A stretch of DNA of 64,000 nt, taken from NCBI GenBank assembly GCA_016699595.1, contig CP064982.1, forward strand, positions 203,647 through 267,646, in the 5' to 3' direction. Position 1 is the first letter of the stretch. Every line of letters begins with the position of its first letter. The position numbers and the translations under genes are program-made. Origin of the DNA: a bacterium. Its GTDB lineage: Bacteria; Patescibacteriota; Dojkabacteria; GCA-016699595. Below, piece by piece: positions 13,558-58,039 of this stretch. The notes beneath the pieces are model-generated. The model ran no database searches, was not told the DNA's origin, and saw nothing but the letters and a program-made list of their open reading frames with translations.

Positions 13558-14574
13558 TTAATTAACTAAAAGATATCCAAATCCAGCAATCATTGCAGCA
13601 TTGTCAGTGCAGAGTATTTGAGGTGGAAAACTTACTTTTATATCATATTGATTCATTACTCTAGTCATAGTTTCTCTAAGTTTAGTGTTTCCTGCAACTC
13701 CTCCTGCGAGATAAATTTGAGAGGCACCATACTTTTGCGCAGCTTGCAAAGTTTTTTGACAAAGTATATCAACTGTAGTTTTTTGAAAACTTGCTGCTAC
13801 ATTACTTTTTTCTTCTTCAAGTTTTTCAACTTCTTTCAATTCTTTCGCTAACTTTACTACATGAGTTTTCAAACCTGAAAAACTAAAGTTTAAATTTTCT
13901 TCAAATCCATTCCCGGTCATAGGATGTGGTAATTCAAATTTATTTTCATCTCCAAGTTTTGCCAATTTTTCTAAGTTTACTCCTCCAGGATATGAAAGAT
14001 CAAGGACTCTAGCAACTTTGTCAAAACATTCTCATGCTGCATCATCTACAGTTTCACTTATTATTTCCAGTTCAAATTTATTATCTACATTTTTGAGTAA
14101 TATCAACTGAGTGTGTCCACCAGAGACTAGAAGACAAAGAGCTTGATTTGGCAACTTCTTTGTAATGCTAGATCTATTATTTGCAACAACATTATCAGAT
14201 TCTTTGAATTCAAGAAAATTTGCCCAAACATGAGCTTTGAGGTGATCAACTTCGAGAAGTGGTTTATCTACTGACAATGCAAGTCCTGAAGCATAAGCAT
14301 AGCCAACTGAAAGTGCAGGTGGAAGTCCGGGATTTCGCGCAATTGCGATAGCATCAATATTATCAATAATTACTTTAGCTTGTTGTAAAGCCTCATCTAT
14401 AACTATTGGTAATCTTTCGAGGTGAAGTCGTGAAGCAATTTCAGGCACAACTCCACCATATTTTGCGTGCAAGTCAGCTTGGGAAGCAATTATATTTGAC
14501 CAAATTATTTGACCATTTTCAACAACTGATGCAGCAGTTTCGTCACATGTTGTTTCGATTCCTAAAATTAGCAT
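13558..14574 (-). CDS. tsaD: tRNA N6-adenosine threonylcarbamoyltransferase TsaD (Kae1/Gcp family), interrupted by one in-frame TGA at 14032-14034
   Basis: The track ORFs 14032..14574 and 13558..13965 are in the same frame. Read through, the sequence is ...TVDDAA[TGA]ECFDKVARVLDLSYPGG..., which matches the universal TsaD motif DDAAGEAFDK with TGA at the conserved Gly. N-terminal part: MLILGIETTCDETAASV...; C-terminal part: ...LAGGVAGNTKLRE... Confidence 0.75.
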
Positions 14575-14626: not shown

Positions 14627-15274
14627 TCATTTGCCAATAAGTAACTTTAGTGAATTTATTACTTTTGGCATATTCATCATTCCCATTCCAACAGGATAAT
14701 ACATTGGAAAACATTTTATTTCTTTTTCTCCAATATTTAACATTTCAAATTCTAAATTTTGATACTTACTTACTGAAATTCTTTTATTCAAAACAATCGA
14801 ACTTACTTGATTACCAAATAACATTGTATTACTTGGGTTAAGTTCTGATAATTCTTGATACATCAAATCTAAATAATTTCTAAACACTTTATCTTTCAAC
14901 GGCTTGGCATCAATTTGTGTACATTTTGCCAAATTTGTCACATAAACTTTGTTTTCAGCTAAATAATTATACAATGACTTTGCAAATTCTGCTGTCCAAG
15001 CATCATTATTTTGAGTATTCTTAAAATATTATTCATTTAACATCCCAACTCTTTGAAATAATTTCCAAACATTTTTAGTTCCAATCCAAGGTGCCTGAAT
15101 TCCTGTCCAGCTTTTGTGTGAACTAATATTTTTCGCAGTTGGATTCATGAAGACAAAAACATATTTTGGATTTTCTGTGCAACCAGCTCCATATATTGAA
15201 TTGAAGTTTGTATCACCATGCAGTTCGTGTAACTTATCAAACTCGGAATGTAGGTGTGTTAGTTGAAGATTCAT
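14627..15274 (-). pseudogene. uracil-DNA glycosylase superfamily-like protein (divergent) interrupted by an in-frame TAA at 15029-15031
   Basis: Track ORFs 15029..15379 and 14627..14974 share one frame. The N-terminal part has an FVFMNPTAKN motif (compare G[IM]NPG / GEAPG) and the C-terminal part has VYVTNLAKC (compare [VI]YITNVVKC). The family call is low confidence. Confidence 0.4.
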
Positions 15275-16056
15275 AAAATATTGATAAACATAAATATTAT
15301 AACCGCAGCAATTCCCCAAACAGGCAACATTAATATTGATGTATATCTTCTCATTATTGGATAATCGAAATATTCCCAATGTTTATACCTTTTACTAACT
15401 ATTAAATTAATTGTATTACCAAGAGCACCTTCTCCTATTGATCCGGTAACGCTACCTATAAGAAATATAAATAAAAAATTGGTTGAGATATTTGTTAAAA
15501 ATACCCCCAAAAATATAATTGGTAAAATTATACTTAGAAAATATCTGCTAAATCTAAACTGTAAGTTCAATTTTTCATTGTCTAAATTATAAAACTTACT
15601 TAGTAGAAAAATTGTTGCAATCATTATTGAAAATAGCAAAAGAAGAAGTTTGAGAATTATTAGTTGATTTGGATTTATATTTAATTTAATTGCAGATGGT
15701 ATAAAATTATTAGTTGTTGCAATAATTAATAAAACGCCTCCAGCATAATATCCAATATTCACTAAGCTTGCATATTTAATCAAATCAAATGAATTATCGG
15801 CATAACTATATAATCTGTGTTTTTGAAATAAGTGATAAATATAACTAAACGAGTATTCTGCAATAACAAAAACTACTGACATTGAGATTGCTATAGCTGC
15901 ATTTTTACCGAAAAACATTAAACCTATCGAGATAAATAAAATATAATTCAAGATTGTAATAATAAAGTAGCTCACATTGAAGTCTAAATGTTTAATAAGA
16001 TTGCGATGTATTACGCTAGTTAATAGGTAAGTTAGGAGAAAAGTTAATGTGAACAT
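15259..16056 (-). CDS. polytopic integral membrane protein (about 7 TM helices), unknown function
   Basis: 261 aa, highly hydrophobic. The track ORF ends at a TGA (15271) that overlaps the ATG of the downstream UDG-like ORF in an ATGA arrangement. Confidence 0.5.
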
Positions 16057-16086
16057 GATGAAGATTTTATATATATTTGCAAAATT

Positions 16087-17241
16087 CTAACAAAATTTTT
16101 CAACCAACTCATTATAAAACTCTAAATTCTGCAAACTTGCAATTCTAAATGCATTACTATCTTTGATTTTGAATAATTGTCTTAGATATTTGAAACTAGT
16201 TGTTCTAAGTTCTTCACTTTTTGAGTTAGGATTTATCATTCTGTCATCATGTTCATATTTGGCTGAATTTATCCTGATTGTTTCAAAACTAGAACGAGAT
16301 GAATTATTACTACAATGATCACAGAGCGAGTCATTCCAAGTATAAATAGTCCCGTGCCTTGCGTTTCTAGTTGGCAATACGCAATCAAAAAGATCATAAC
16401 CATACTTCAAGCATTTTATAATGTCATGAGGCGCACCTACTCCCATTGCATAGTTATAAACTTTCTTCATTGGAGACACATTCAAAACATAATTCAAGCT
16501 ATTTACAAGTTCTGCATTAAACTCAGCAAGTTCATCCAAAAAACTTCCATCTTTATCAAGTGGCCAACCTCCCCAACCATAACCACCAAATCCGATTGCA
16601 GCAAGTTTATCAAAACAATATTTCCTTAGTTCAAAATTTCCTCCACCTTGAATTACACAAAAAATAAGAGGTTTGTAATTATTATCAAATTCATTTATTT
16701 CTTTTAGTCTTTTTTCAAAATAATCTTTACAAATCTTCGCCCAACGAACAGTTCTTTCAACTGATGATTTTATCCTACCTATTTCAGAATCTGGTTCAAG
16801 AGGATCATCAAGTACAACTATGACATCAGAATAAAGTGCAAACTGAATTTCAATTGATTTTTCTGGTGTTAGTTTATGGATACTTTTGTCAATCGGTGAG
16901 CTAAATTTGAAAAACTCGTCAGTTACTCTTCCTAAACCTCTTTTTGCGAAACTATATGCTTGAAAACCTCCAGAATCAGTTAAAATTCCACCTTGCCAAT
17001 TTGTCAAATTCCTAAAGTTATATTTTTGAGAATTCGTTAAATTTTTCAATTCTTCTAAACTCATATCTCTACCAGTTCTATTCAAATAGTTTAGATAATT
17101 ATGCAAAGTATTTGTCACAATTGCAGAAGTTCCAATTTGTTTTAGATCTGACCAAGAAACTGAATTTACAACTCCATAAGTTGCATCAGGCATGAAAAAT
17201 GGTGGATTTTGGGTTGAGAAATTATTTTTCAATTGATACAT
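16087..17241 (-). CDS. tgt: queuine tRNA-ribosyltransferase (tRNA-guanine transglycosylase)
   Basis: ILTDSGGFQ catalytic motif, MGVGAPHDII, and C-terminal QNLEFYNEL (compare HNLHFY). The Zn-site region is CDHC. Confidence 0.8.
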   Translation of the reverse strand: MYQLKNNFSTQNPPFFMPDATYGVVNSVSWSDLKQIGTSAIVTNTLHNYLNYLNRTGRDMSLEELKNLTNSQKYNFRNLTNWQGGILTDSGGFQAYSFAKRGLGRVTDEFFKFSSPIDKSIHKLTPEKSIEIQFALYSDVIVVLDDPLEPDSEIGRIKSSVERTVRWAKICKDYFEKRLKEINEFDNNYKPLIFCVIQGGGNFELRKYCFDKLAAIGFGGYGWGGWPLDKDGSFLDELAEFNAELVNSLNYVLNVSPMKKVYNYAMGVGAPHDIIKCLKYGYDLFDCVLPTRNARHGTIYTWNDSLCDHCSNNSSRSSFETIRINSAKYEHDDRMINPNSKSEELRTTSFKYLRQLFKIKDSNAFRIASLQNLEFYNELVEKFC

Positions 17242-17885
17242 ATGACTGTATAAAGTCGTAGATTTTTTCGGATGTATTTCAAAAAATCACCTTCTCCAAT
17301 TCTTGCTTTGCCTATTTCTCTAACTAACTTTTCAAATTTGATAAGTTCCATATTACCACAAATCAACGGATTTTTTATCCTTGAGATTCTGATAACCTGA
17401 GTTTCAACACTTGGCTTTGGTTTGAAATCATTTTTTGATAAATCCATCAGAATATCAAAGCCAAAATAATTTTGATATACAATTGATTTTAGATTATTGC
17501 GAAAAACTCCCATAAACATTTCAGCAACTTCTTTTTGAACTATAAAAACCCCATATTGAAAATGACTATTTTTCATCAATTTAGTCAAAATTTCTGAAGT
17601 AAATGCAAAAGGCAAGTTAGAAAGTACTTGATAATCAAAATCTGGCAATTCAAAATCAAAGAAATCAACATTATAAATATTCAGCTTTGGATAATATTTT
17701 TTGAGGTTTGTAGCAAGTTCGATATCTTTTTCTAGAATAATTGAGTGAGGTTTCAAAAATTTGCTGAATTCTCCGTGTCCACCACCTATTTCTAAAGTTG
17801 GCAAGGAAGAATCTTGATTTGCAAGAATTAGTTTGACTTTACCTGAATTTGTGAAAAAGTTTTGAGTATACTTCAGTGAAAACAT
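17229..17885 (-). CDS. rsmA: 16S rRNA (adenine1518/1519-N6)-dimethyltransferase RsmA/KsgA
   Basis: TQNFF (GQNFL), EIGGGHGEFS SAM motif, and VLSNLPFAFTSEIL (SNLPYnISTpil). The TGA stop overlaps the tgt start by 13 nt. Confidence 0.8.
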   Translation of the reverse strand: MFSLKYTQNFFTNSGKVKLILANQDSSLPTLEIGGGHGEFSKFLKPHSIILEKDIELATNLKKYYPKLNIYNVDFFDFELPDFDYQVLSNLPFAFTSEILTKLMKNSHFQYGVFIVQKEVAEMFMGVFRNNLKSIVYQNYFGFDILMDLSKNDFKPKPSVETQVIRISRIKNPLICGNMELIKFEKLVREIGKARIGEGDFLKYIRKNLRLYTVICIN

Positions 17886-18445
17886 TATTCAATAATTGTA
17901 GCATTTCCTAACCTTACAATTTCAAAATGGTTATCAAAAAGTTTGACTATTGTTGAAGGTTTTTGCAAAGATTTGTAGTGAAATTCATAAATAAAATCTA
18001 TTTGGCTTCTTATATCTTGTGGTATGTCATGAGAATTCATAATCGGATCTTCTCCAGAATGATTCAATGATGTTTGAGCAATCAAGCCAATTTCGTTGAT
18101 GAGTTCTGACAACCATTTAACATGTGTGACTCTAAAACCAGAATATCTTTTCAAACCATCTACCATAAATAAATGACTATCAACTTCTACGAGACTTTTC
18201 AATGGCACAACAAATGTCATGTCGCTGACATTATTTTTGTGTATGAAGTCCAATTGATAATTATTCAGCTGATATAGTTCAATTACTTTATCAAGTGAAT
18301 TGCTAAGTATAAGTAATGGTTTTGAATAATCTCTTTTTTTGATTTCAAAGATTGTTTGAATTGAATTATGATCACTATACCTGCAAAATAATCCAGGCAC
18401 AGTTTCAGTTGGACCGGCAAATACTTTATACTTACTAAAAATCAT
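17885..18445 (-). CDS. tsaC: L-threonylcarbamoyladenylate synthase TsaC/YrdC family
   Basis: FAGPTETVPGLFC...KKRDYSKPLLIL and PSTIV, the YrdC/Sua5 signature. Adjacent to ksgA and tgt, forming an RNA-modification gene string. Confidence 0.7.
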   Translation of the reverse strand: MIFSKYKVFAGPTETVPGLFCRYSDHNSIQTIFEIKKRDYSKPLLILSNSLDKVIELYQLNNYQLDFIHKNNVSDMTFVVPLKSLVEVDSHLFMVDGLKRYSGFRVTHVKWLSELINEIGLIAQTSLNHSGEDPIMNSHDIPQDIRSQIDFIYEFHYKSLQKPSTIVKLFDNHFEIVRLGNATIIE

Positions 18446-18471
18446 AATATTAGATTACCAGTAAAAATCAT

Positions 18472-21400
18472 TTAAATAACTATACTAACAATTCTACCTT
18501 TGACATAGATAAACTTTTTGATTTCTACCCCTTGCAACCATTTAGCTATATTCATATCTTGCATAACTTTTTCCTTCAAACTTAATTCGTCATCATCTAC
18601 ACTCAACTCAAGCTCTCCCCTTAGCTTTCCATTAACTTGTACACCTATTACCATCTTCTCTTCAGATATAAGTTTCTCATCCCAAGTTGGCCAATTTGTT
18701 TGATGAATACTAACCTCTTCAGTCTCGCTTAGATCAACAGATTCCACAGAAGAAGCAATATTAATTGTTAAATTATTGTATATTTCATCAGTTATGAATG
18801 GTGCAAACGGTGCAAGTAATTTCATGTAAGTCAAAAAGTCATCAATTGAAATAGTCATACCTTCTTGTTCAATCAAGTTTTGGAACTTCATAAACTCAGC
18901 AACACAAGTATTGAATTTCAATTCCGGAATGTTTGTAGTTACATACTTGATCAATTTCTGTAATTCTGCTTTGACTTTTGGAGTTGAGACATAGCGTACC
19001 ATTTTAATGACTGGCAAATAATGAACATTATCTTTCAACATATACTTGTCTTCTCCACATTCTACAAACCCGAATTTTCGGTAAAGGTTAATCGCATTGT
19101 TTCCACTAACTACCTCAAGATACAAATCATGAATTGCAAATTTAGTTATTATAACTTCCATAGCAACACCTCCAATTCCTTTAGCTCTAAAATCTCTATC
19201 TATGTATAGAACTAGTTTCCTATGTTGATTTTTATCTTGAGATAGAAAGCTACTTAACCAACCTATAACTTTTCCTTCTGATTTAATTGTTAAACTGATT
19301 TTTCTGTTGGAATTTGCAAACCTTGGAATAATGTTTGTTAAATCGGTACTTTCATCAGGAACTATCATTCCTTGAATATTTTTTAGAATTTCTATATCAA
19401 TTCCAGTTTCAGGACTTATATTATTATCATACCAACCTTCAACTTGAATTCTTCTGGCATCTCTAATTTCAGATTCTTTTATTGATTCAAAAGTTAAATT
19501 ATATTTTTGAATTACTTCTTGAGCCTTTTCTGAATAACTATCTTTGACATTAGTATTTCCCAATTGTTCAGCAAAATTCCAAACTCTATCAATATATCTT
19601 CTCACTCCAACTACGGTTTCTTCGCTCCAATTCTTGCTTTGCTCAAGCGGACCCATAAACATTTCATAAACACGCAATGTATCAGCACCATACTTCTCAC
19701 AAACTGTGCTAGGATTCACGATATTTCCCCATCGCTTGCTCATCTTTCTACCATCAGGACCTTGAATCATGCCTTGATGTCTCATTTTATAAAAAGGTTC
19801 GGAATAATTTATCAATCCTTTGTCAAAAAAGTATTTCGTAAAAAACCTAGAATACATCAAGTGCAAAACTATATGCTCTGGACCAATCATATATAGATCT
19901 GTTGGTAACCAAGCATTACAAAGTTCACTATCAAAAGCCTTTGTATCGTCATTTACTGACATATATCTCATATAATACCAGCTTGAATCTATAAATGTAT
20001 CGAGAGTGTCAAATTCAAATCGAGAGCCTACTCCGTAAAGTTCTTCAGCTAATTTTTTGTAACTTTCTGAATATGCAATTGGAGATTCTCCAGTTGGTTT
20101 AAATTCAACATCAGTTGGAAGTTTGAGTGGTAAATATTTTTCATCAACTGGTTTTACAAAGTATTTTTTACCATCAAATGTTACTTCTTTGAGTTCATTA
20201 TAATCTTTGTTTTGGGAATTATCCTCAGTGACAGGAATGTAAACTATTGGAATTGGACAACCCCAATATCTTTGTCTTGAGATCAACCAATCACGAAGTC
20301 GATAAGTTATTTTTGTGCTACCTATTCCAAGTTTTTCAAATTCTTTTATAATCCTTTTTTTAGCTTCAGGAACAGTTAGTCCATTCAATATATCTGAATG
20401 GATCAATCTTGAATTTTCATCATCTGTCAAAAATGGAAGTTTCTCACACCTATCAACTTCACACTCACAATTATCCTTGCAGTTATTACAATTAGGATTA
20501 TTACAGCCGAGATTTCCTTTTGCATCTATTCGTTTTATGACCTGAACTATATCACATCCGTATTTTGTTGCAAACTCAAAATCTCTTTCATCATGAGCAG
20601 GCACTGCCATTATGGCTCCGGTTCCATAAGTATTTAGTACATAATCTGCAACAAATATGGGAATTTCAGCTTTTGTCATTGGATTTATAGCCTTTATACC
20701 TTTCACTTCAACTCCTGTTTTTTTTATTTGAGATTCTCTTTCCAGTTGAGATTTCAACTTTGCTTGATTTTTATAATCTATAATGTCTTGATTATTAGTT
20801 ATAAAATCTTGCATTTCAACGAGCATAGCATGCTCAGGAGCAATTACCATAAAAGTTGCTCCATAAATTGTATCTGGGCGAGTCGTGAAAACTTTGAGAG
20901 TATTTCCATCGTTAGAACCTTCCGCTTCCGTCACCTTCCTAGAAGGAAAGATTTGAAACTCAACTTCTGCACCTTCAGATCTGCCTATCCAGTTCTTTTG
21001 TGCAGCTTTTGTGCTCTCTGGCCAGTCAACTTCATCCAAATCTTGGTAAAGTCTTTCAGAATAATTCGTTATCTTCATAAACCATTGTTCCATATCTTTT
21101 TGAAGAACTAAACTTTCACATCTTTCACACTTTCCATTTATAACTTGTTCGTTTGCGAGGACTGTTTGACAGCTAGGACACCAGTTTACAGGAGCATTTG
21201 CTCTATATGCTAAACCATCTTTGTACATTTGCAAGAAAATCCATTGAGTCCATTTATAGTAGTTTTCCCAATGAGCAGCAAGTTCATGAGTTTCCCAGTC
21301 TGTAGAGAATCCGACCAAATCTAGTTGCCGTTTGAAATTACTTATGGCTTCTTGTGTTGTTGTATTTGGATGAATACCAGTTTTTATAGCATAATTCTCG

Positions 21401-21660
21401 GCAGGTAGCCCAAAACTATCCCAACCAATGGGCAATATTACTTCTTTGCCACGCATTCGTTCAAACCTAGCTAAAATATCAACCGGATTGAAGCAATACA
21501 TATGACCTACATGTAGTCCATAACCAGAAGGATAAGGCAAGGCAACAAGTGCATAATATTTATCTTTTTCTGACTTTAGGTTTGGCTTATAAAGTCTTTG
21601 TTCTTTCCAAACTTCTCTCCATTTGGAGTCAATTTGTTGGTGTGGGAATTTGTTTGTCAT
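18472..21660 (-). CDS. leuS: leucyl-tRNA synthetase carrying an in-frame GNAT acetyltransferase domain insertion (about aa 701-898) and a Cys-rich insertion in the editing region
   Basis: HIGH-type PYPSGYGLHVGH and KMSKRWGN. A complete GNAT motif A/B (LYIDRDFRAKGIGGVAMEVI...VVSGNNAINLYRKFGF) sits between the catalytic core and the anticodon-binding ELKFNTCVAEFMKFQN...LAPFAPFITDE. 1062 aa. Confidence 0.9.
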   Translation of the reverse strand: MTNKFPHQQIDSKWREVWKEQRLYKPNLKSEKDKYYALVALPYPSGYGLHVGHMYCFNPVDILARFERMRGKEVILPIGWDSFGLPAENYAIKTGIHPNTTTQEAISNFKRQLDLVGFSTDWETHELAAHWENYYKWTQWIFLQMYKDGLAYRANAPVNWCPSCQTVLANEQVINGKCERCESLVLQKDMEQWFMKITNYSERLYQDLDEVDWPESTKAAQKNWIGRSEGAEVEFQIFPSRKVTEAEGSNDGNTLKVFTTRPDTIYGATFMVIAPEHAMLVEMQDFITNNQDIIDYKNQAKLKSQLERESQIKKTGVEVKGIKAINPMTKAEIPIFVADYVLNTYGTGAIMAVPAHDERDFEFATKYGCDIVQVIKRIDAKGNLGCNNPNCNNCKDNCECEVDRCEKLPFLTDDENSRLIHSDILNGLTVPEAKKRIIKEFEKLGIGSTKITYRLRDWLISRQRYWGCPIPIVYIPVTEDNSQNKDYNELKEVTFDGKKYFVKPVDEKYLPLKLPTDVEFKPTGESPIAYSESYKKLAEELYGVGSRFEFDTLDTFIDSSWYYMRYMSVNDDTKAFDSELCNAWLPTDLYMIGPEHIVLHLMYSRFFTKYFFDKGLINYSEPFYKMRHQGMIQGPDGRKMSKRWGNIVNPSTVCEKYGADTLRVYEMFMGPLEQSKNWSEETVVGVRRYIDRVWNFAEQLGNTNVKDSYSEKAQEVIQKYNLTFESIKESEIRDARRIQVEGWYDNNISPETGIDIEILKNIQGMIVPDESTDLTNIIPRFANSNRKISLTIKSEGKVIGWLSSFLSQDKNQHRKLVLYIDRDFRAKGIGGVAMEVIITKFAIHDLYLEVVSGNNAINLYRKFGFVECGEDKYMLKDNVHYLPVIKMVRYVSTPKVKAELQKLIKYVTTNIPELKFNTCVAEFMKFQNLIEQEGMTISIDDFLTYMKLLAPFAPFITDEIYNNLTINIASSVESVDLSETEEVSIHQTNWPTWDEKLISEEKMVIGVQVNGKLRGELELSVDDDELSLKEKVMQDMNIAKWLQGVEIKKFIYVKGRIVSIVI

Positions 21661-22031
21661 GTTGATTTAATTGTTGTTTCAAAGGATTGAGTGATTTTTT
21701 GCCAAAATTTTTCAATAGTAGTTGTTTGATCTGATATTTCGAAATAAAAACCTACTTCATCGTTATGAAGCTTTATAAACTTTGCATCAGAGGCAAAAAC
21801 TTCCCTGTTTAGCTTGTCAAAATCTTCTATAGTAGTAATTTGTTTAAAAGTATCTTTTACTATACCAAGGTCGTCAAAGTTATTGTTCAAAGTTTGTTGC
21901 ATAATACTTACTATTTCTTTTGATGTGCAGCCAATTATTGATTTCATCTTTTGCTTTTGGCCCATAGTTGTTCGTATATAAAAAGATGGTTTTGGAGTAA
22001 TGATTTTTTGAATTTTTTCTAATATACTCAT
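21657..22031 (-). CDS. hypothetical protein (124 aa)
   Basis: ATG-to-TGA ORF whose TGA overlaps the leuS ATG (ATGA). Confidence 0.4.
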   Translation of the reverse strand: MSILEKIQKIITPKPSFYIRTTMGQKQKMKSIIGCTSKEIVSIMQQTLNNNFDDLGIVKDTFKQITTIEDFDKLNREVFASDAKFIKLHNDEVGFYFEISDQTTTIEKFWQKITQSFETTIKST

Positions 22032-22053
22032 ATTGGTAATGTAAAAACTTAAT

Positions 22054-22590
22054 TTATAAATATTGCAAAATCTCAGCTAAATTCTCTGGAGCATTAAAAC
22101 CCTTGCACATGTAAGCATCGGATGGAGGTGGTATCCAATCTGAGGATGTTACTTCAAGCTTTTGCATTTTACCTTCAAAGTATAAAACTGCACAATCAGT
22201 ATTCCACATCTTTTCTCCAAGAGTGAAGACTACATAAGAATTATCATCTTGCTTTTCACTACTATTATTCTTAGCAAGATATTTACTCTCTTTTATCAGT
22301 TTAAGTTCAGAAATTTTCATATCGTTGTTTAGATTAGACTTAAGAAATACTCTTATACTGTCAAAATAATCTTGATAATAACTGCTTGGATCTCCAGTGC
22401 CTTTCGCATACAGAGAAACTTTCTCTACTTCATTTGCCAACACAAAATTACTTTTGTCAAAGTTTGGTATGCCAATTTTGTTTTCAGTATCAAACAGACT
22501 AGAAGTTAATATTCGTATAATTATATATATGATGATGATAATTAGTATGAAAATTATTACTATCAAAGTTGCTATTCGTGATTTGCTCAT
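22054..22590 (-). CDS. membrane-anchored hypothetical protein (N-terminal TM helix)
   Basis: N-terminus MSKSRIATLIVIIFILIIIIIYIIIRIL is followed by a soluble domain with two Cys. Confidence 0.45.
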   Translation of the reverse strand: MSKSRIATLIVIIFILIIIIIYIIIRILTSSLFDTENKIGIPNFDKSNFVLANEVEKVSLYAKGTGDPSSYYQDYFDSIRVFLKSNLNNDMKISELKLIKESKYLAKNNSSEKQDDNSYVVFTLGEKMWNTDCAVLYFEGKMQKLEVTSSDWIPPPSDAYMCKGFNAPENLAEILQYL

Positions 22591-22601
22591 GTGTTAAAGA
22601 G

Positions 22602-23245: not shown

Positions 23246-26200
23246 CTATAATTTAAACAAAGGGTTTAGATAAAGGAAAATAACATTTCTCTTTCCAGTA
23301 TCAGCTAGTTTTATCTCAAATTGAACTGGAGTAGGATCATTCAATCTGTTAGGTAAAATATTACCTGAATTGGTTCTATTATTCAGGTCATCTGGTTGAT
23401 CCGTTCCCACATTATTGTTATTTCCATTGTAACCACTTTGATTTTCTGTATTATCATCTGAAATATCAATTACGGTCTCACTCAGATCAGAAGTGCCTTT
23501 TATTGTTGCAGAATTCCAAAATACACTTCTACTAGTACCCACAATCTTGAGATCAAGAGTAATGATTATAACTCCCTCTTCTAATATCCCTAAACTATCT
23601 GTACCAATCAAAACATTGTCATCTGTTACTCCGTCGTAAAGAGAATTTATTTGAAAATTATTATCAGTCGTTGCGACAACATTACTTATTTCTATTGGTA
23701 CTGGGAAAGCTAATCTCAAGTTATCTTTAACTTGTAAGTTATGCAACTTCATATTTCCCACATTTTTGAATCTTAATTCATATTTAATTTTGAATTGATT
23801 CGAACCTAAATCAGTCGAGGATATCAGTTTCTTAAGCAAACCTATCTTAGGACTTGAAACCATTGCATTCGCAGGATCATCTGAAGATATACTATCAGGA
23901 ACCGTACCATCAGTAAGTGGGGATGGTGTTGCTGTAACAACTCCTGTATTTGTATGCTGACCATTTTCTGGAGCTATTAGTGTAGCTGTACAAATCATGC
24001 TCTCCATAGGTAGTAATATAGTTTTGGGGCAGTTGATCTCACTAGTATTTATATGAGTGTCAGAAACTACAATATCATTCAATGTTATATTACCAATGTT
24101 AGTTACTTCAAATGTAATTTCCATCAAGGTTCCGGCACTGATATATATTCCAGGTTCTACATTAGCGTCTTCACCATTTATTCTTTTGATAATGTTTATA
24201 GCTGGATTGATAGATAATGCATTCGCAGGATCGCTGTCACTAATAGGTGACGGATGTAAGTTGTTAGGTGTAGGTGATGGAGTTCCCATTACAGTCCCAC
24301 TATTGGTATGCTGAATACCACTTGCTGGAGATGTGAAGCTCGCAGTACATGTCATGGTTCCACCCACAGCAAGTACATTGCTAGGACAATTGATTTGAGA
24401 AGTAGCAATCATGTCATCTGCTATGACTATATGGTTTAGTTGAACATTGCCAGTATTTGCAACTTGATACTCGATAGTTAAAGGAGTGTTCGGTAACACG
24501 TAAATTCCCGGAGTAATATTTGCGTCATTACCATTTATCAACTTGATTAAACTTATTCCAGGTAATGCTGGTACAAATGCATTTGCTGGGTCAGAATCAG
24601 TAACATTTGCAGGCTGATTCCCATTTGGCAATGTAGGGGGTGTGCCGGTGACATTTGCAATATTTGTATGTTGCCCTGCATTATTAGGTAAAGTAAATAC
24701 ACTAGTACATGTTATAGATTCTCGAGGAATCAATGTAGTTTTGGGGCAGCTAATATCTGATTCGCTTAATACATTATCTTCAAGAAGAATATTATTTAAA
24801 ATTGTATTTCCTGTATTTGTAATTTCAAATGTAATGTTTAGCTGAGAACCACCTTCGTAAGATAGTCCTGGAGTAGAATTTGCATCATCGCCATTTATCC
24901 TTTTGACGACTGAAATGCTAGGACTGCTACCTACAAATCCAGCATCAATAGTTATATCTGACTCACCGATATCCAAAGTAATAACTTGGCTTATACCATT
25001 TGCAAGTGAAGCATCTGAATCTTCAGTGTCATTACCAGTATTTGGATAAGTATAAGTATAACCAGCTGGTGGCGTGAATCTTATTTTATAATCTCCATGT
25101 ACTAAATTTTCAAATAAATATAATCCATCATTCCCAGTGACAACAGAATCAATAACTGTATTATTTATATCTATCAGCTCTACAAGTACTCCAGCTAATG
25201 GTAATTCCCCGCTATCGATTATCCCATTAAAGTTACTATCAACCCAAACATAATCTCCAATTTCTCCAAGAAGCACTTGAACAGAAACATTATTTGATAC
25301 CGCAGGTAAAGCAAGTCCGCTTGCCCTAAGTATAAATTGATTTGTGAAAATATCACCATTCATATTTGGAGAATTAGTCTGAGGCTTCATAACTAATTTG
25401 TATATAGAACTATCACCTCCATTTAGTAAACCAGTTTGAATTCTTAACCCGGTTACTTCATTTAATGTAGCTGGACATCCTATATTTCCAAATTGCAATT
25501 GAGTACACCAAACAATGGCTGGGTTGATAGAGATCGGATCAAGGTCATTAGGTAGTGACAGGGTGCTTCTGTCATGTTTCGTGAAGAGTATGTTTGTAGG
25601 AACAACTCCTGACTCGTAAGATATACTTTGTAGTATAGTTGTTCCATGATAATTTGTAGCAGGTGTTCTCTGATCTCCGTTCCAAGGAAGCCAATCTATA
25701 AGATCAGTACTAGGTACAGGATTTTGACCCGGATTCGTCATGCCCAACGAAAACTCAATTGTATCTAATGGCTCAACAATTGGCTTGATTGTTGACTTTT
25801 CAACTGCAAATGCAGATGTGTTTATAACTTGTAATGTAGCCGTTGATGTTCGCCAAGATTCCATAGAAGGATCATTCTCGGCAGATATTAGGGCACTATT
25901 TGTTTTCATAGTTCCACTAGGAATCAAATTGCTGATGTCAGTCCTGAAAGCAATAAATTTGAATAGTTTACCAACTTCTACATCCCCATAGTTCCAAGTG
26001 AGAGTACTAGTACCATCAACATTGTAAGTAATGCTAGGTTCGCAATTTATAGGTGCTATTTGAAAAACCATTGATATAGGTAAGTTGCATAAAGCTGTTC
26101 CGGGTATATAAGCTATCCCTTGTGGTAAGGTATCTGTCAGTACCACATTTTGTGCAAATCCAGGTGGAGTAGCACCCATAGATTCAGTGTTTGGCCATAA

Positions 26201-28282
26201 CATCCAGAATGCCTCTTGGTCTGTTGTCAATGTATCATCTTTCTTAGCACTATCTGTTATAGTCTTATTCACACGAACTTTTGCACCTACTACAGTAATT
26301 CTGTCACCAAGACCATTTCCAAGTGCGGTATCAACATTATAGTTGCTGTCAATCCAACCTCCATTTACAGGTTGCCATTGTAATGCAGCGTCTTTAAACC
26401 CAAAGTGATTGGCAACTTTTTGATTTAAGGGGGCAGTAGACTTCACGATATAAGGGACTTCTAAAACGAATGAAGCATTGCTGACTTGTTCTTGATAATT
26501 TAATTGTTCAGCAATGGTATAATCTTCGGTAAATAGAACTCTAATTTTTGTAATTGCAGCACTACCACCGGGTACAGAACCTAAATCCGAGTACCATAAT
26601 CCATCAGTTGACTGATTATTTTCGCAATTTGCTGACATTATAGCACTGTCATTAGCCCAATTTATACCTACTCCATTTACTCCTCCTGTGCCATATTGAA
26701 CTATGACATCAGTGAAGCTATCTAGTAGGGACGGATTGTCTACATGTACTATTGCTCCTTCAGCAGTATGGCCTGATATTGGGTAGACCTCTACATATCT
26801 ATTATCGATTTTGGTACATAACATACTACCGGCAATATAAGTCATTTTTCCATTTGGATAAAAAATATTTTTGCTAGAATACAATCCACCTCTTGGAACA
26901 ACACCATCTCCAGATGCATCTGTCGAACCAACGGGCACAATACTCGATAGATAACCAGCGGTTAAGTTACCATCACTGATCAAATTTGCAGTGCTAATAT
27001 TATCAACATATTTATAATCTCTTTTGGCAACTATACCACCTGGAGGTAATGTAATTACATTTACATATCCATTTTCTGAACCATACAAAGAAGTATTAAG
27101 TGTATCTTCATTTGTTAGACCTGTTCCTGGATCACCAGCTCCACCAAAGTTAGCATTGCCTGAGTTTAAGCCAACCGGACTAAAGTTTTCAAACATATTC
27201 AATACATTTGCAAGTTCATAGTTACCAGTTGATGGATTGATATTTAGATCAGTAAATGGTATAAATATTGCTATATAGTCAGAAACAATCCACATGTCAT
27301 TGCTTGAAAGAGTATTCCCGTTTTTTGCAACAGTTGGAAATGTAGAAGGATTTGTATGAGTACTAGAAATTGATATGTTGATAATTTGTGCATCTCCAAG
27401 ACTAGGAGTACAAGTAATTGTACCTGAATCTTCGACAGCATTTGTCGCAGTTGATCCTGAGTAATTGCCAATCTTGCCAAATGGAAAATATTGGACTTGA
27501 AAAGTACTTACGCCACATGCATCAAGTTCTGCATTGGGGCTAATTCCTGAAATATCATCTGTAAATGTCATTGGTAATTGAGGTATTTCTGACCCAGGTT
27601 TCAATTTGACACCTATTCCATAGTACCAAAGTGTTCCAGCTACGCCATCTTTCAACTTTGTACCTCTATATTCTATACTTCCTTTTTGTAAATCAATTTT
27701 AGGTGTAGCAGTTCCTGTTACTGTAGGTGCTGATGCAGTTGTGACATGCGTTGCTCCTGTAGCTGATGCAGTACCAGTTAAAGTAATAGTTGTCCCCTCA
27801 ACTATACTAGGTAAAGCGCGCACATTACCGTATACAGAAGTAATTTCACCGGTGTTTCTAATCCCAGTATTGCATATCAATATTGACTGAGTGTTTATGC
27901 CATCTCCAGTTAATGAGCCTCCTGAACCAAGATTACACCCTACAGGTATTTCCGTCCAAATATATCCTAGTGGTAGTGGATTTAATGTAGCAGTTAGATT
28001 TGCATAAGGTTCTTGAGTACTACCCGTCGAATCAACTAAGTTTAAATCAATTTTATATACTATAAGTTGTCCAGCACGTACTCTGTAATTGTTTGCTGAA
28101 CTATCGTTTCCAATTAAATCATCTATGTCAAAAGGAGAATTGCCATCATACTCAACAGATATAGCAATACCAGCCGTTGTCGTTGAACCATCAGCAGTAA
28201 TCTTTTCGTTTAGTTTACTTGATGCAGTGAAAAAGACGGTTACAATAATCAAAATTAGTGCTGTGATTTTAATTAGTTTCAT
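23246..28282 (-). CDS. giant secreted/cell-surface protein (1678 aa) with a signal peptide, at least three tandem DUF11-type conserved repeat domains and an SdrD-B/Cna-B-like domain; putative adhesin
   Basis: N-terminal signal peptide MKLIKITALILIIVTVFFTASS. Repeats RINGDDANSTPG...ITFEITNTGNT...ISCPKT...GQHTNIANVTGTP occur three times, typical of DUF11. GDYVWVDSNFNGIIDSGELPLAGVLVELID...TGNDGLYLFENLVHGDYKIRF resembles an SdrD B-like domain. Composition is Thr/Ser/Asn/Gly-rich. Confidence 0.8.
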   Translation of the reverse strand: MKLIKITALILIIVTVFFTASSKLNEKITADGSTTTAGIAISVEYDGNSPFDIDDLIGNDSSANNYRVRAGQLIVYKIDLNLVDSTGSTQEPYANLTATLNPLPLGYIWTEIPVGCNLGSGGSLTGDGINTQSILICNTGIRNTGEITSVYGNVRALPSIVEGTTITLTGTASATGATHVTTASAPTVTGTATPKIDLQKGSIEYRGTKLKDGVAGTLWYYGIGVKLKPGSEIPQLPMTFTDDISGISPNAELDACGVSTFQVQYFPFGKIGNYSGSTATNAVEDSGTITCTPSLGDAQIINISISSTHTNPSTFPTVAKNGNTLSSNDMWIVSDYIAIFIPFTDLNINPSTGNYELANVLNMFENFSPVGLNSGNANFGGAGDPGTGLTNEDTLNTSLYGSENGYVNVITLPPGGIVAKRDYKYVDNISTANLISDGNLTAGYLSSIVPVGSTDASGDGVVPRGGLYSSKNIFYPNGKMTYIAGSMLCTKIDNRYVEVYPISGHTAEGAIVHVDNPSLLDSFTDVIVQYGTGGVNGVGINWANDSAIMSANCENNQSTDGLWYSDLGSVPGGSAAITKIRVLFTEDYTIAEQLNYQEQVSNASFVLEVPYIVKSTAPLNQKVANHFGFKDAALQWQPVNGGWIDSNYNVDTALGNGLGDRITVVGAKVRVNKTITDSAKKDDTLTTDQEAFWMLWPNTESMGATPPGFAQNVVLTDTLPQGIAYIPGTALCNLPISMVFQIAPINCEPSITYNVDGTSTLTWNYGDVEVGKLFKFIAFRTDISNLIPSGTMKTNSALISAENDPSMESWRTSTATLQVINTSAFAVEKSTIKPIVEPLDTIEFSLGMTNPGQNPVPSTDLIDWLPWNGDQRTPATNYHGTTILQSISYESGVVPTNILFTKHDRSTLSLPNDLDPISINPAIVWCTQLQFGNIGCPATLNEVTGLRIQTGLLNGGDSSIYKLVMKPQTNSPNMNGDIFTNQFILRASGLALPAVSNNVSVQVLLGEIGDYVWVDSNFNGIIDSGELPLAGVLVELIDINNTVIDSVVTGNDGLYLFENLVHGDYKIRFTPPAGYTYTYPNTGNDTEDSDASLANGISQVITLDIGESDITIDAGFVGSSPSISVVKRINGDDANSTPGLSYEGGSQLNITFEITNTGNTILNNILLEDNVLSESDISCPKTTLIPRESITCTSVFTLPNNAGQHTNIANVTGTPPTLPNGNQPANVTDSDPANAFVPALPGISLIKLINGNDANITPGIYVLPNTPLTIEYQVANTGNVQLNHIVIADDMIATSQINCPSNVLAVGGTMTCTASFTSPASGIQHTNSGTVMGTPSPTPNNLHPSPISDSDPANALSINPAINIIKRINGEDANVEPGIYISAGTLMEITFEVTNIGNITLNDIVVSDTHINTSEINCPKTILLPMESMICTATLIAPENGQHTNTGVVTATPSPLTDGTVPDSISSDDPANAMVSSPKIGLLKKLISSTDLGSNQFKIKYELRFKNVGNMKLHNLQVKDNLRLAFPVPIEISNVVATTDNNFQINSLYDGVTDDNVLIGTDSLGILEEGVIIITLDLKIVGTSRSVFWNSATIKGTSDLSETVIDISDDNTENQSGYNGNNNNVGTDQPDDLNNRTNSGNILPNRLNDPTPVQFEIKLADTGKRNVIFLYLNPLFKL

Positions 28283-28801
28283 ATAGGCAATTGTTGAGGT
28301 GTGGCTAAAAGTATTTGCTTTATTTTAAAAGATATTTGATGCAATATCAAGTAATGAACTTTCTGTATAAGTTCATTGTTAAATTTGATAAGCTAAAATT
28401 GACAAGAGGTTGATTAGGGTTCCTTGATAATTTAACAATGTAATACTAAGTGTATTGCAGTTGTCGTTAAAACTTATATTATGGTTTTTTGAATAATTCA
28501 ACTCATGTCAGAACTCTTGCTTTCAAATATTATCAAATCAAAAGTTTGATAACAATGCGCAATTCAATTGTTTTGATGACCATAGAATGATTTCTCTGTT
28601 ACAAATGATCTATCAAGTTATCACAAGACAGTAAATAATTTTTGGTCTACACTTTTTAATATTAAATTATTATTTGTCCTATTTTCATTTTTAACTGAAA
28701 GTTTTTTGTCCGAAAATAATCGAACTATCAATACATTTTTTACCTTCAAAAGCAGGTTTTTGCAATTTGAATTATCAAGCTTTTGAATATATAATGTTGC
28801 T

Positions 28802-30149: not shown

Positions 30150-30860
30150 TCAAGAAGTAATACTACTTAAAATAAAGTATCTATTCCAATCCATTTCAAA
30201 CTCTTTCTCAATTTGAAAATTATTTACTACAAAGTATTTCTCGATATCTTCCTCTTCCCACTTGTAACAAATCCTTTCAGCTTCATTATTTCCAAAAGCC
30301 AGTTTATATAGATTTGGACTTATTTCAATTGCTTTTTTCATAAGTCTAGGTATTTTCCAAAACTCCCAAAAACTAAGTATAAGTAATGTGCCATTTTTTG
30401 AATGATTTTTGATATTTTTGAAGAAATTGTCCCTCGCTGTTTCACTTTCTAAATGATGTGTAACTCCAAAACCAACTTTGATATCAAACTTCTGATCTTG
30501 CAATATTTCCCAACTTTCCGAAGTGAAATCTTGTTTAAGAAATTTAACATTTGGTAAATTAAATTTTTCTTTTGAAATCTCAAGCAAAGTGTCAGAATAA
30601 TCAATTCCTGTATAATTCTCAAAACTAATATTATTATCAATCAAAAAGTTCAGAAATCTACCGTTTCCAGATCCAATGTCTAGTATATTTTTATTCATTC
30701 CTTGTGGAAGGTGGCTGAAAGTCGGAAGGGGTTTTGAAGTATCATCTGCTTGAATTATGTTAAAATAAGGCATCAATTCATACCAACCTTGCCATGGTGC
30801 ATAACGGCTATCTGAAAATTCTTTTGCTGATTTTGGATTTAAATACAAATTATTTTTCAT
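30150..30860 (-). CDS. class I SAM-dependent methyltransferase (possible Trm9-like partner of Elp3; inference)
   Basis: ILDIGSGNGRF (motif I, Rossmann SAM-binding). Lies divergently adjacent to elp3. Confidence 0.65.
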   Translation of the reverse strand: MKNNLYLNPKSAKEFSDSRYAPWQGWYELMPYFNIIQADDTSKPLPTFSHLPQGMNKNILDIGSGNGRFLNFLIDNNISFENYTGIDYSDTLLEISKEKFNLPNVKFLKQDFTSESWEILQDQKFDIKVGFGVTHHLESETARDNFFKNIKNHSKNGTLLILSFWEFWKIPRLMKKAIEISPNLYKLAFGNNEAERICYKWEEEDIEKYFVVNNFQIEKEFEMDWNRYFILSSITS

Positions 30861-30905
30861 TCTGACTTAAACAAAACCCAACTTCATGAAATTATATCAG
30901 AACTT

Positions 30906-32765
30906 TTGAGCCTACTTGAGAAAAACGAACTAGATACTGCGAGTTATATCAAAATAGTTAGAAAATATAGTCGAGATGGAAATTCAACATTCAGCAAAGA
31001 TGACATATTGAAAGAAATTGATGTATTGCTAAGGGTAAAAGGTGAATATTGCTTCCTTGGGGAAGCTGGCGAGCGAAGCGAACCTGAAGGGGTTTTGAAA
31101 AACGAATTAGAATCTCTCAAATCTGCAATCAAACTCAAACCAATGCGAACTGAATCAGGAGTTACTACAGTTACGGTTCTGACTAAACCTTATGCTTGCC
31201 CTGGACAATGTATATTTTGTCCAAATGATGTTCGGATGCCAAAAAGTTATATCGCAACTGAACCTGGAGCTCAAAGAGCTCTGATGTTCAGGTTTTCTCC
31301 ATACGCTCAAGTTTGGAATAGACTTAAAGCTTTGCAAAATATAGGTCATCCAACCGACAAAGTCGAAATGCTTGTACTTGGTGGAACTTGGACGAGTTAT
31401 AAAGAAGATTATAAACTATGGTTTACTTACAATCTTTTCAAGGCTATGAATGATTTTGGAGATGGAATTTGTGATGAGAGGTTAATGACAAAGCAAGATA
31501 TAAGTGAGATATTTGAAAATGATTTTAATGATGATATTAGGAAAAATTACTCCTTCACATGGGAAGGTGTCCAGCAAAGCAGGACAGAAGGGGTTAACTC
31601 TTTAATTGATAAAAGTAAAACTAATTTTATTGAATACAACAAACTTCTCCAAACTCAAGAATTTAAGGCGTGGGAAAAAGAAAATGTTGTTGCAGGAGAT
31701 TTTATGAATTCTCCTACATGGGAAATTTTGTTTGAAGAACAAAATCGAAATTCGAAAGGTAAATGTAGATGCGTGGGTTTAGTTTTTGAAACTAGACCAG
31801 ATAGAATTACACAAAAAGAAGTTTTGACTTTACGAAAACTTGGTGCTACAAAAGTTCAACTAGGAATTCAGATCCTAAATGATGAAATTTCAAGTTTGAA
31901 TAAACGAGGTGAGAATATTGAAGATGCTATGAAAGCTTTTGAATTACTTCGACTTTGGGGCTTTAAAATTCATGTTCATATGATGCCAAATTTACTTGGT
32001 GCAACTCCAAAGCTAGACTTGGAAAGTTATAAGTTACTCGTTAATGATCCTCACTTTCTTCCAGATGAAATAAAAATTTACCCAACAAGTTTGATTGCAA
32101 ATACTGAACTTGAGAATGAGTATAAAGCCGGAAACTGGAGACCTTATGAAACTCAAGAATTGGTTGAATTAATCGCTCAAATGATTGCAGAAACTCCAGA
32201 ATATGTAAGGTTAACTCGTATTATTCGAGATATACCAAGTCAAGAAATTGAAGCTGGAAATAAACTTACTAACTTAAGACAAGTCGTTGAGAAGTATATG
32301 CAAGATAATGATATGCAAGATCAAAATATCAGAGCAAGAGAAATTAAACAGGAAAAAGTAACTTTTGTCGATTTGGAATTGAAAATAGTTGAATATCAAA
32401 CTACAATTTCAAAAGAATTGTTTTTGGAATATGTAAAGCCCCCATTGAAAAAGGGGGGCAAGGGGGATTTTATTGCTGGGTTTTTAAGATTGAGTTTGCC
32501 TATTGATAATATTTCTGCCATGATTCGAGAAATTCATGTTTATGGTCCAAGTTTGGAAATTAGCAAAGATAGTTCTGGCGATGCTCAGCATCTTGGACTT
32601 GGGACTAAGTTGATTGAAAAAGCAAAAAAAATTGCGAAAGATTTGGGTTATAATAGCTTGAAAGTAATTTCAGCGATTGGAACTAGAGAATATTATGCCA
32701 AAAGAGGTTTTGAAATGACGGAAGATGGACTTTATCAATTGACAAAACTAAAAGTTAATTTCTAA
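30906..32765 (+). CDS. elp3: Elp3 family tRNA uridine(34) carboxymethyl-modification enzyme (radical-SAM domain plus C-terminal GNAT/KAT domain)
   Basis: Radical-SAM CxxxCxxC in ACPGQCIFCP, the Elp3 core (LVLGGTWTSY, FETRPDRIT), and a C-terminal GNAT fold (HLGLGTKLIEKAKKIA...YYAKRGFE). The TTG start is uncertain. Confidence 0.8.
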   Translation: MSLLEKNELDTASYIKIVRKYSRDGNSTFSKDDILKEIDVLLRVKGEYCFLGEAGERSEPEGVLKNELESLKSAIKLKPMRTESGVTTVTVLTKPYACPGQCIFCPNDVRMPKSYIATEPGAQRALMFRFSPYAQVWNRLKALQNIGHPTDKVEMLVLGGTWTSYKEDYKLWFTYNLFKAMNDFGDGICDERLMTKQDISEIFENDFNDDIRKNYSFTWEGVQQSRTEGVNSLIDKSKTNFIEYNKLLQTQEFKAWEKENVVAGDFMNSPTWEILFEEQNRNSKGKCRCVGLVFETRPDRITQKEVLTLRKLGATKVQLGIQILNDEISSLNKRGENIEDAMKAFELLRLWGFKIHVHMMPNLLGATPKLDLESYKLLVNDPHFLPDEIKIYPTSLIANTELENEYKAGNWRPYETQELVELIAQMIAETPEYVRLTRIIRDIPSQEIEAGNKLTNLRQVVEKYMQDNDMQDQNIRAREIKQEKVTFVDLELKIVEYQTTISKELFLEYVKPPLKKGGKGDFIAGFLRLSLPIDNISAMIREIHVYGPSLEISKDSSGDAQHLGLGTKLIEKAKKIAKDLGYNSLKVISAIGTREYYAKRGFEMTEDGLYQLTKLKVNF

Positions 32766-50724: not shown

Positions 50725-53277
50725 ATGTCTACACCAAAACTTACAGCAGAACAGCAATATTTAGATCTGAAATCAAAATACCCTGATTGTATCTTATTTT
50801 TTCGTATGGGAGATTTTTACGAAGTTTTTGATAATGATGCTCGTGAAATGAGTAAAGTTTTAGGTTTAACTTTGACAAGTCGAGATAAAGGTGAGAAAAA
50901 ACGACCAATGGCTGGAATTCCACATCACGCGCTGAACCAATATTTAGGAAAAATTGTAAATTTAGGTTACAAAGTTGCAATTGCTGAGCAAATGGAAGAT
51001 GCCAAGTTTGCCAAGGGAATCGTGAAAAGGGAAGTTACAAAAGTTGTAACAGCAGGAACTTTGATTGACGAGAAAAATTTACAAGAACAAGAATCAAACT
51101 TTATTCTAGCTTTGAATTATTCTAAGTATAAAAACAGTATTGTTTGGGGTTTGAGTTATCTTGAACTTTCAACTGGAGAATTCAAACTTATAGAACTTGA
51201 AACTAGTCAAAATTATTTAGCTCAAAATAAACTACCAAGTAAAATAATTGACAAAATTTCAACTTTGCAACCAAGAGAAATATTACTTCCAGAAAAACTG
51301 AAGTACTTCCTTACTCCGATCATCCAAACAAGACTTACTTTGATCGAAGAATTCCAGTTTGACTTTGATATAAGCTATAAAAATATAATCCAACATTTCA
51401 AACTTGCAAATTTAGTTGGATTTGGTATTGAAAATTATAAAATTGCAATTGGTGCAGCTGGAGTTATATTGAATTATGTCAAAACTAGTGAAAAAACTGA
51501 ACTTAGCCATATCACAAAACTAGTTTTTGATAACTTTTCAGAAAATATGAATTTTGACTTTGCAACTATACGAAGTCTGGAACTTATTGAACCTATAAAT
51601 TTATCAAACTTAAATTCAGATAAACCTACTACTTTGCTTGGAGTTTTGGATAAAACTAAAACTCCGATGGGAAAAAGACTGATTCGAAGTTGGGTTTTGA
51701 AACCTTTGACAAATTTAGCTCAAATCCAAAATAGACTTGATAATGTCGAAAACTTTTTGAAACTAGATAATGATAATAAATTAGTTATTTCAAATTCGCT
51801 GGATAATATTTATGATATAGAGCGAATTTGCGGAAGAATTGGACTTCAAACAATTTCACCGAAAGATTTTGTAGCACTAGATGGTTCTATATCTGAAATA
51901 TTAAATTTAATTCAAACTTAAACTAAATTAAATTCTGAAAATAAGCAAGGCGAATTAAAAGAAGGTTTAATATTAAATAAATTAATTAAGTACTTTGATG
52001 AATTAAATATAATTAAAAACAAAATTAGCTCATCCCTACTTTCAAATCCAAGTTTTGAGATAAATCAAGGAAATATTTTTCAAGATAATTATAATTCTGA
52101 AATTGCAGAACTTCGAAATATTTCAACAAATTCAAAAGATTGGATATTAAATTATCAAGCAGAACAAATTACTCAAACACAAATATCAAACTTGAAAGTG
52201 AAGTTTAATTCTGTTTTTGGATATTTCATAGAAGTATCAAATTCGCAAACTTCAAAAGTTCCAGAAAATTATATCCGCAAACAAACTATTGCTGGGGGTG
52301 AAAGATATATAACTTCTGAATTGAAAGACATGGAGCAGAAAATCTTAACTGCAGATGAAAAGTTGATTGGTTTAGAAAAAGAATTATTTCTAAAGTTTAG
52401 AGAAGAATTTATACAACATATTCAAACTTTGCAAAAAGTATCACAAATTATAGCAGAAGTTGATACTTTATTTTCTTTTTCAGAAGTTGCAAAGGAAAAT
52501 AATTACACAAGACCTATATTTACTGAAAAATCGCAAGTACTAGCTATTACTTCAAATCGTCATCCAGTAGTTGAAAAACTAGTTGAAAACTTTACTTCGA
52601 ATGATTTAAATCTGAATAGTCAAAACTCAATGATGATTTTGACAGGTCCAAATATGTCTGGAAAATCCACATATATTCGGCAAGTTGCACTTTTAGCTAT
52701 AATGGCTCAAATTGGAAGTCTTGTTCCTGCTGAAAGTTGTGAGCTAAGTCTAGTTGATAGAGTTTTTACTCGAGTTGGAGCAAGTGATAATTTGTCAAAA
52801 GGTGAATCAACTTTCATGGTTGAAATGAATGAAACTGCAAATATTTTGAATAATGCGACTTCAAATTCACTTTTGATTTTAGATGAAATTGGACGAGGAA
52901 CTTCGACTTTTGATGGAGTTGCTATAGCTTGGTCAGTCATGAAGTATATTTACGAAAATCTGAAGTGCAGAACTTTGTTTGCAACGCACTATCTAGAACT
53001 TACTGAACTTGAGAAAAAGTATGATGGTATTTCAAATTATTCCGTTCAAATTGCTGAAAAAAATGATCAAGTGATTTTTATGCATAAAATAATTCCTGGT
53101 AAAGCGCAGAAATCTTTCGGGGTTCATGTTGCAGAAATTGCAGGAATGCCAAATGAAGTTATAAATAATGCTAAGGAAATTTTGAAATCTTTTGAAGATA
53201 GTCAAAATAAAGTCAAAAAGGTAGTAAATAAAAAAATAAATTCAGAAAAAATTCCTCAAATGGGATTGTTTGAGTAA
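50725..53277 (+). pseudogene. mutS: DNA mismatch repair protein MutS interrupted by one in-frame TAA at 51919-51921
   Basis: Track ORFs 50725..51921 (domain I, GDFYEVFDNDA) and 52192..53277 (ABC ATPase GPNMSGKST...DEIGRGTSTFDG) are in the same frame. The 270-nt gap between them translates without further stops into MutS-like clamp/lever sequence. Confidence 0.8.
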
Positions 53278-53342
53278 AATGATTTCTTTGAAAGTTGCTT
53301 TCCTGTTAGGAAAGCTCCCCGCAGGGGTGATAGGTTAAAAAC

Positions 53343-57848: not shown

Positions 57849-58039
57849 AAGTTTCAATAATTTACACAAAAATTATACCACTTCCATAGGGGTTTAACTT
57901 ATTTTAGATAAAGTTACAATATTTCTCAAAAAATGCTTGACTTATACCTCTTTTTTGGTACAATGACTTTGTCAACCAACAATATTGTCTTTGACTATGT
58001 CATTCGATGATATTGTAGTTGGAAAATCTTTGGTTTTTC

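Follow-up and report, generated by a model that had tools for sequence, protein, structure and literature searches.

The tsaD gene in the window (we use this term for the whole stretch of DNA analysed, 64,000 nt in length) is interrupted by an in-frame TGA that stands at the position of an invariant glycine, and we regard it as most probable that this stop is a real, recent, strain-specific nonsense mutation, GGA to TGA, and not a change of the genetic code. The tsaD lesion is one of four fresh lesions found in the window, two of which affect DNA-repair genes. The window strain is represented in NCBI by a metagenome-assembled genome (MAG), a single contig of 761,814 bp with locus tags IPJ91_; an orphan ORF of the window is 100% identical to the protein QQR93754.1 (IPJ91_01185) of this MAG. 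To judge from its accessions, the MAG may belong to a set obtained from activated sludge with nanopore and Illumina reads. The features of the tsaD locus are:

13558-14574, minus strand: tsaD (tRNA t6A37 threonylcarbamoyltransferase), 338 codons with one internal stop
14032-14034, minus strand: in-frame TGA in tsaD, standing in place of Gly181

The ORFs 14032-14574 and 13558-14031 share one reading frame and the TGA (tca on the plus strand at 14032-14034) sits between them. The read-through product matches the Pfam profile PF00814 (E-value 2.7e-82) in a single stretch, with residues 24-330 aligned to profile positions 2-263 of 264, and it retrieves the Thermotoga maritima TsaD structure 6nak_B (4.9e-77) as well as other PDB TsaD chains (~1e-77). 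As regards membership of the TsaD family (PF00814/Kae1/Qri7), we thus found a full-length profile match with the invariant columns kept. These results (frame check, PF00814 and PDB matches) bear out the reading of the two ORFs as a single tsaD frame, proposed in the initial annotation, which had also placed the stop exactly at the conserved Gly of the DDAAGEAFDK motif. Our alignment agrees: the stop is aligned with the Gly of the DD(A/S)AGEAFDK motif, which is present in 10 out of 10 aligned homologues, and the window sequence around it reads DDAA-stop-ECFDK, compared to the family form DDAAGE(A/C)FDK. Besides the stop, the TsaD of the window departs from these 10 homologues at just one of their invariant columns, by a private N-to-D change.

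A Gly position occupied by a UGA codon, in an organism from the same radiation as the code 25 lineages, raises the question of a genome-wide alternative code, either table 25 (UGA=Gly) or table 4 (UGA=Trp). We consider this reading almost certainly wrong, and both codes are ruled out within the window by the codon tally and the use of terminators. In the tally, which covered 54 delimited genes with 18,929 codons of the 64-kb window, the tsaD TGA is the sole in-frame TGA (against 1,064 Gly codons, including 473 GGA), while the two off-frames contain 1,612 TGAs. The 53 complete genes end with TAA (28), TAG (13) or TGA (12). Among the genes ending naturally at TGA is PheS, in which the Pfam tRNA-synt_2d profile is matched to its very end (246/246) at the last residue, and TGA also takes part in stop/start overlaps (ATGA/TGATG) at positions 15271 (membrane protein gene/UDG gene), 21657 (orf139/leuS) and 55220 (mraZ/rsmH). 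In orf257 (a 257-codon gene at 46108), read-through of the terminal TGA would run into tRNA-Leu. The long genes of 1,692, 1,064, 827 and 812 codons, with leuS, clpC and pheT included, contain no TGA inside, and the sole tRNA in the window is tRNA-Leu(TAG). The arguments against a genome-wide code 25 put forward in the initial annotation (the canonical TGA end of PheS, the TGA/ATG overlaps at the three junctions, and the long genes free of internal TGA) therefore all hold within the window, where they are joined by the 12 TGA terminators among 53 genes and by the finding that no other gene of the window contains an internal TGA either.

Several of the long reading frames exhibit features of their own. 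In LeuS (18472-21666, minus strand; 1,064 aa), the catalytic core is separated from the anticodon-binding domain by an inserted GNAT acetyltransferase domain (residues ~783-875). A radical-SAM domain is found together with a GNAT domain in a 640-aa protein of Elp3-like architecture (30843-32765, plus strand). The gene at 23246-28324 (minus strand) encodes a 1,692-aa predicted surface protein with SdrD_B and four DUF7507 repeats. The ORF at 60923-64000 (plus strand) comprises more than 1,025 codons, has no match in Pfam or NCBIfam, and extends beyond the window; the strand antisense to it displays many short TGA-flanked ORFs, which can mislead a reader. We considered the region 60.9-64.0 kb as a possible stop-riddled pseudogene and rejected this idea, as it is occupied by a single plus-strand ORF of more than 1,000 codons that leaves the window.

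The tsaD stop is accompanied in the window by damage to three further genes, which the initial annotation had overlooked:

14627-15274, minus strand: gene of a UDG-superfamily glycosylase, 215 codons, interrupted by an in-frame TAA
15029-15031, minus strand: in-frame TAA in the UDG-family gene; the conspecifics have GAA (Glu), which corresponds to a G-to-T change
50725-53277, plus strand: mutS, 850 codons, interrupted by an in-frame TAA
51919-51921, plus strand: in-frame TAA within a variable linker of mutS, where Gln stands in the conspecific protein; the change was probably CAA to TAA
17229-17885, minus strand: ksgA/rsmA, with a 74-nt deletion between direct repeats of ~22 nt, junction at ~17275-17297

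The UDG gene is located immediately upstream of tsaD and is transcribed in the same direction. Its homologues (more than 100) are single proteins of 212-220 aa that cover 93-100% of the read-through query; the Pfam UDG match spans the TAA and all invariant motifs are kept on both sides of it. An 81-aa UDG fragment is deposited in NCBI as QQR93747.1. The mutS gene of the window retains the five MutS domains with all Walker/ATPase motifs intact, all its homologues are single proteins (~810-970 aa), and the next in-frame start is found 90 codons past the TAA. Directly 3' of mutS there is a free-standing DUF559 gene (53334-53762, plus strand), and a DUF559/Vsr-like endonuclease domain is also inserted in MnmA (56235-57872, minus strand; 545 aa) at residues 184-282. 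In ksgA/rsmA, the comparison of DNA and protein with the sister contig L020 indicates that the deletion led to a frameshifted, shortened C-terminus that ends at a TGA: the L020 KsgA has 245 aa, and in the window the Pfam RrnaAD profile is matched only to position 210 of 263. As the damage extends to two in-frame TAA codons and a deletion, there is no reason to invoke a mechanism specific to tsaD or to UGA.

The comparison with sister strains was based on conspecific contigs from two other sequencing runs: L020 (SRR30164240, 6,168 bp), and L021 and L019 (both SRR30164251). Their DNA is 95.6-98.8% identical to that of the window and we treated them as the same species. Both L020 and L021 have GGA at the position of the tsaD TGA and GAA at the position of the TAA in the UDG gene, and their two genes encode intact products of 338 and 228 aa. 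Each of these stops differs from the sister sequence by one G-to-T change, while at the mutS stop the sister strain (for which only the protein is available) has Gln. Thus, the proposal that a single G-to-T change in a GGA codon would explain the tsaD stop is confirmed, with exactly this codon carried by the conspecific strains. Intact Logan proteins from the same 90% clusters were identified for TsaD (338 aa, P0364), UDG (228 aa, P0367) and MutS (850 aa, P0369); the read-through products of the window are 96.7% identical to P0364 and 97.1% identical to P0369. The closest strains therefore contain an intact tsaD orthologue that differs from the window by a single base at the stop, as is to be found for a recent strain-specific nonsense allele. 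The best TsaD match outside the conspecifics, the 78%-identical relative L001, has GGT at this site. Searches of the GTDB representative genomes and JGI metagenomes revealed no close relative, with identities of 44% at most.

The sister contigs also differ from the window in gene content next to the UDG gene, where block boundaries in blastn and the junction sequences delimit the following segment:

15272-16094, minus strand: 823-nt segment with the gene of a 261-aa membrane protein

In the window this segment separates tgt from the UDG gene; it is absent from L020 and L021, in which the UDG gene has a longer N-terminus and overlaps tgt. The 261-aa product is a multi-pass membrane protein with a weak match to PF06541. 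Another candidate lesion, orf179/orf139 (21657-22593) as a frameshifted gene, was rejected, since the same two genes are found in the sister contig L019.

The age of the lesions was estimated from the pattern of substitutions. The dN/dS of tsaD against L001 is 0.14 before the stop and 0.13 after it, hence there is no relaxed constraint downstream. We used more distant homologues to polarise the amino-acid changes between the window and the sister strains, and the derived changes turned out to be symmetric (window/sister: 5/4 for tsaD, 9/8 for mutS, 8/7 for the UDG gene), and in these three genes private changes are not in excess at columns that are invariant elsewhere. From the equal dN/dS and the symmetric derived changes it follows that the lesion is recent, and the lesions are young relative to the strain divergence of ~3%. 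The unrelaxed constraint downstream of the stop is a sign of a young lesion and not of a functional gene. The comparisons described above demonstrate the sequence changes, their absence from the sister strains and their recency, and, of the three options listed in the initial annotation (a sequencing or assembly error, a very recent nonsense mutation, or UGA=Gly decoding), it is the very recent nonsense mutation that the evidence favours.

An error of the consensus or of base calling, with a true GGA in tsaD and with all three stops (tsaD, UDG gene, mutS) as artefacts of MAG assembly or polishing, deserves to be considered, because the source is a metagenome-assembled genome, three nonsense codons per 64 kb are unusually dense, and none of the three truncated products was placed on a retrievable contig. 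We nonetheless regard it as unlikely. A Logan assembly contains the exact 180-aa N-terminal and 120-aa C-terminal products of tsaD, both of them recorded from a single contig of 2,978 bp (the sample may be the same as that of the MAG), and the 398-aa MutS fragment is recorded both from NCBI (QQR93781.1) and from Logan, which is a separate pipeline; the occurrence of the truncated tsaD products in the Logan assembly makes a base-call error unlikely. Moreover, only 5.1% of random coding substitutions create stops (16.8% in the case of G to T), so that, for three nonsense errors to occur, one would have to assume ~60 erroneous substitutions in the window, i.e. ~1e-3 per base. In the ~8.2 kb that could be aligned with the sister contigs, the 74-nt deletion is the only frameshifting coding indel, and the other indels comprise one in-frame 3-nt indel (leuS) and two intergenic single-base ones, which is unlike a poorly polished assembly. 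We also looked for a sequence motif common to the three stops that could indicate a systematic error or a hypermutable site, and found none. Altogether, a real allele is much more likely than an artefact.

If the stops are real, read-through could still be frequent enough for the genes to remain functional, by leaky termination, near-cognate decoding or a suppressor tRNA, including an incipient UGA=Gly decoding of the kind that has become fixed in the code 25 lineages. Conservation is equal on the 5' and 3' sides of each stop, tsaC is intact (see below), and in tsaD the UGA is positioned exactly where Gly is required, with UGA=Gly known from other Patescibacteria (PMC4032931). However, the equal conservation on both sides is predicted also by a very young lesion, the sister strains have sense codons and none of the stops of this set is conserved, and a mechanism specific to UGA would leave unexplained two of the three stops, both of them UAA. 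The bases at position +4 (G, T and A) do not form known leaky contexts, the only tRNA of the window is the above-mentioned tRNA-Leu(TAG), the 76 nt 3' of the tsaD stop fold no better than shuffled sequences (z=0.60), and the Rfam search of the window reported nothing besides the tRNA. In view of these data we find read-through at a functional level quite improbable. The more specific variant, in which TsaD, MutS and the glycosylase would be partly functional owing to low-level suppression of the stops, with UGA occasionally read as Gly in tsaD, seems to us very improbable; if true, it would represent a living "ambiguous intermediate" on the road to the code 25 of Patescibacteria.

Two forms of dedicated recoding were rejected. 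In the case of selenocysteine, there is neither a downstream fold signal nor an Rfam match, and the position is that of an invariant Gly (not of Cys or Sec); in the case of programmed read-through of the tsaD stop, the stop is not conserved (GGA in the conspecifics, GGT in the 78%-identical relative) and is followed by no RNA structure. A naturally split tsaD, in which two polypeptides form an active enzyme, could be suspected, as each half forms an intact ORF and an in-frame TTG at 13965 is preceded by an SD-like GGAGGA, but the first in-frame start is located 22 codons past the stop, and the C-terminal piece would therefore miss the invariant E182, D185, K186, R189 and YPGG. Furthermore, TsaD is a single protein in the sister strains and in all 120 listed homologues, and we judge that a functional split has hardly any chance of being correct. 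More generally, we dismissed split functional genes: the nearest in-frame start past the stop is 22 codons away in tsaD and 90 codons away in mutS, and a product begun there would lack invariant residues.

We therefore return to the nonsense mutation as the preferred explanation, and propose the following course of events. The GGA codon of the invariant Gly181 was converted to TGA by one G-to-T transversion; with UGA acting as an ordinary stop, translation of TsaD would end after ...VDDAA and yield a product of 180 residues without the C-terminal half of the fold, so that tsaD has most likely lost its function. Without mutS and the glycosylase, the mutation rate may have risen, and further knockouts such as that of tsaD may have arisen under this condition or hitch-hiked; the lineage was possibly repair-deficient at the time when the tsaD allele arose. 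GGA to TGA is, however, a transversion, which is atypical of mismatch-repair loss, and the link to a mutator state is one that we can only infer.

This course of events also supposes that the cell tolerates the loss of t6A, and here the neighbourhood of tsaD is informative:

17885-18454, minus strand: tsaC (Sua5/YrdC family), first enzyme of the t6A pathway, intact (Pfam PF01300, E-value 3.1e-29)

The match of tsaC to NCBIfam TIGR00057 (E-value 1.4e-23) has a score of 83 bits, under the cut-off of 123.2 bits. The intact tsaC indicates that the t6A pathway was lost only recently or that the tsaD allele is not fixed. Both E. coli and S. pneumoniae require tsaD and t6A synthesis for viability (PMC9654439, PMC12632869). 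In view of this, and with the adjacent tsaC intact, a complete loss of TsaD comes as a surprise, unless the lesion is of very recent origin, still segregates in the population or is made up for in some way. On the other hand, t6A synthesis is dispensable in Streptococcus mutans (PMC12632869), so a viable tsaD knockout has a precedent. If the allele is fixed, t6A would be dispensable in the organism studied here, which would be of note for the field of tRNA modification.

With the failure of the recoding candidate, the tsaD stop has nothing new to say about the genetic code, and it reminds us, as regards annotation pipelines, that UGA in place of a Gly codon in a Patescibacteria genome does not by itself constitute evidence of code 25. 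It is of modest interest for genome evolution: in the 0.76-Mb closed genome of an ultra-small bacterium, the fresh knockouts of mutS, the UDG-family gene, ksgA and tsaD represent gene loss in progress, possibly a snapshot of a mutator lineage, with all four genes kept in the sister strains. A literature search for in-frame stops in CPR/Patescibacteria returned nothing relevant.

Among known systems, the code 25 of Gracilibacteria and Absconditabacteria (PMC4032931, PMC6851277) resembles the present case in that UGA is found where Gly is required, in a Patescibacteria-like, low G+C (32%) context. The code 25 lineages, however, contain hundreds of UGA=Gly codons compared to one occurrence here, and in our case UGA terminates genes, the sister strains have GGA, and the 64-kb window contains no tRNA-Gly(UCA). 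The likeness is limited to the UGA at Gly, and both defining features that can be tested in the window fail. Streptococcus mutans (PMC12632869) provides a parallel of another kind, as a bacterium that can survive although its t6A pathway is not functional, so that in principle a tsaD knockout could be viable; in contrast, the present organism is uncultured, it has retained an intact tsaC, and tsaD is preserved in its sister strains. The nonsense pseudogenes of mutator or genome-reducing bacteria share with our case the single-base premature stops in genes that are otherwise intact, the presence of repair genes (mutS, the uracil-DNA glycosylase family) among the first to be hit, and the intact copies in sister strains. 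The differences are that the mutator phenotype is here a presumed one, that the analysis covered 64 kb of the genome, and that G-to-T transversions account for two of the three nonsense changes, whereas transitions are typical of MutS loss. The tsaD stop is thus an event of an ordinary, already known kind, a strain-specific nonsense pseudogene.
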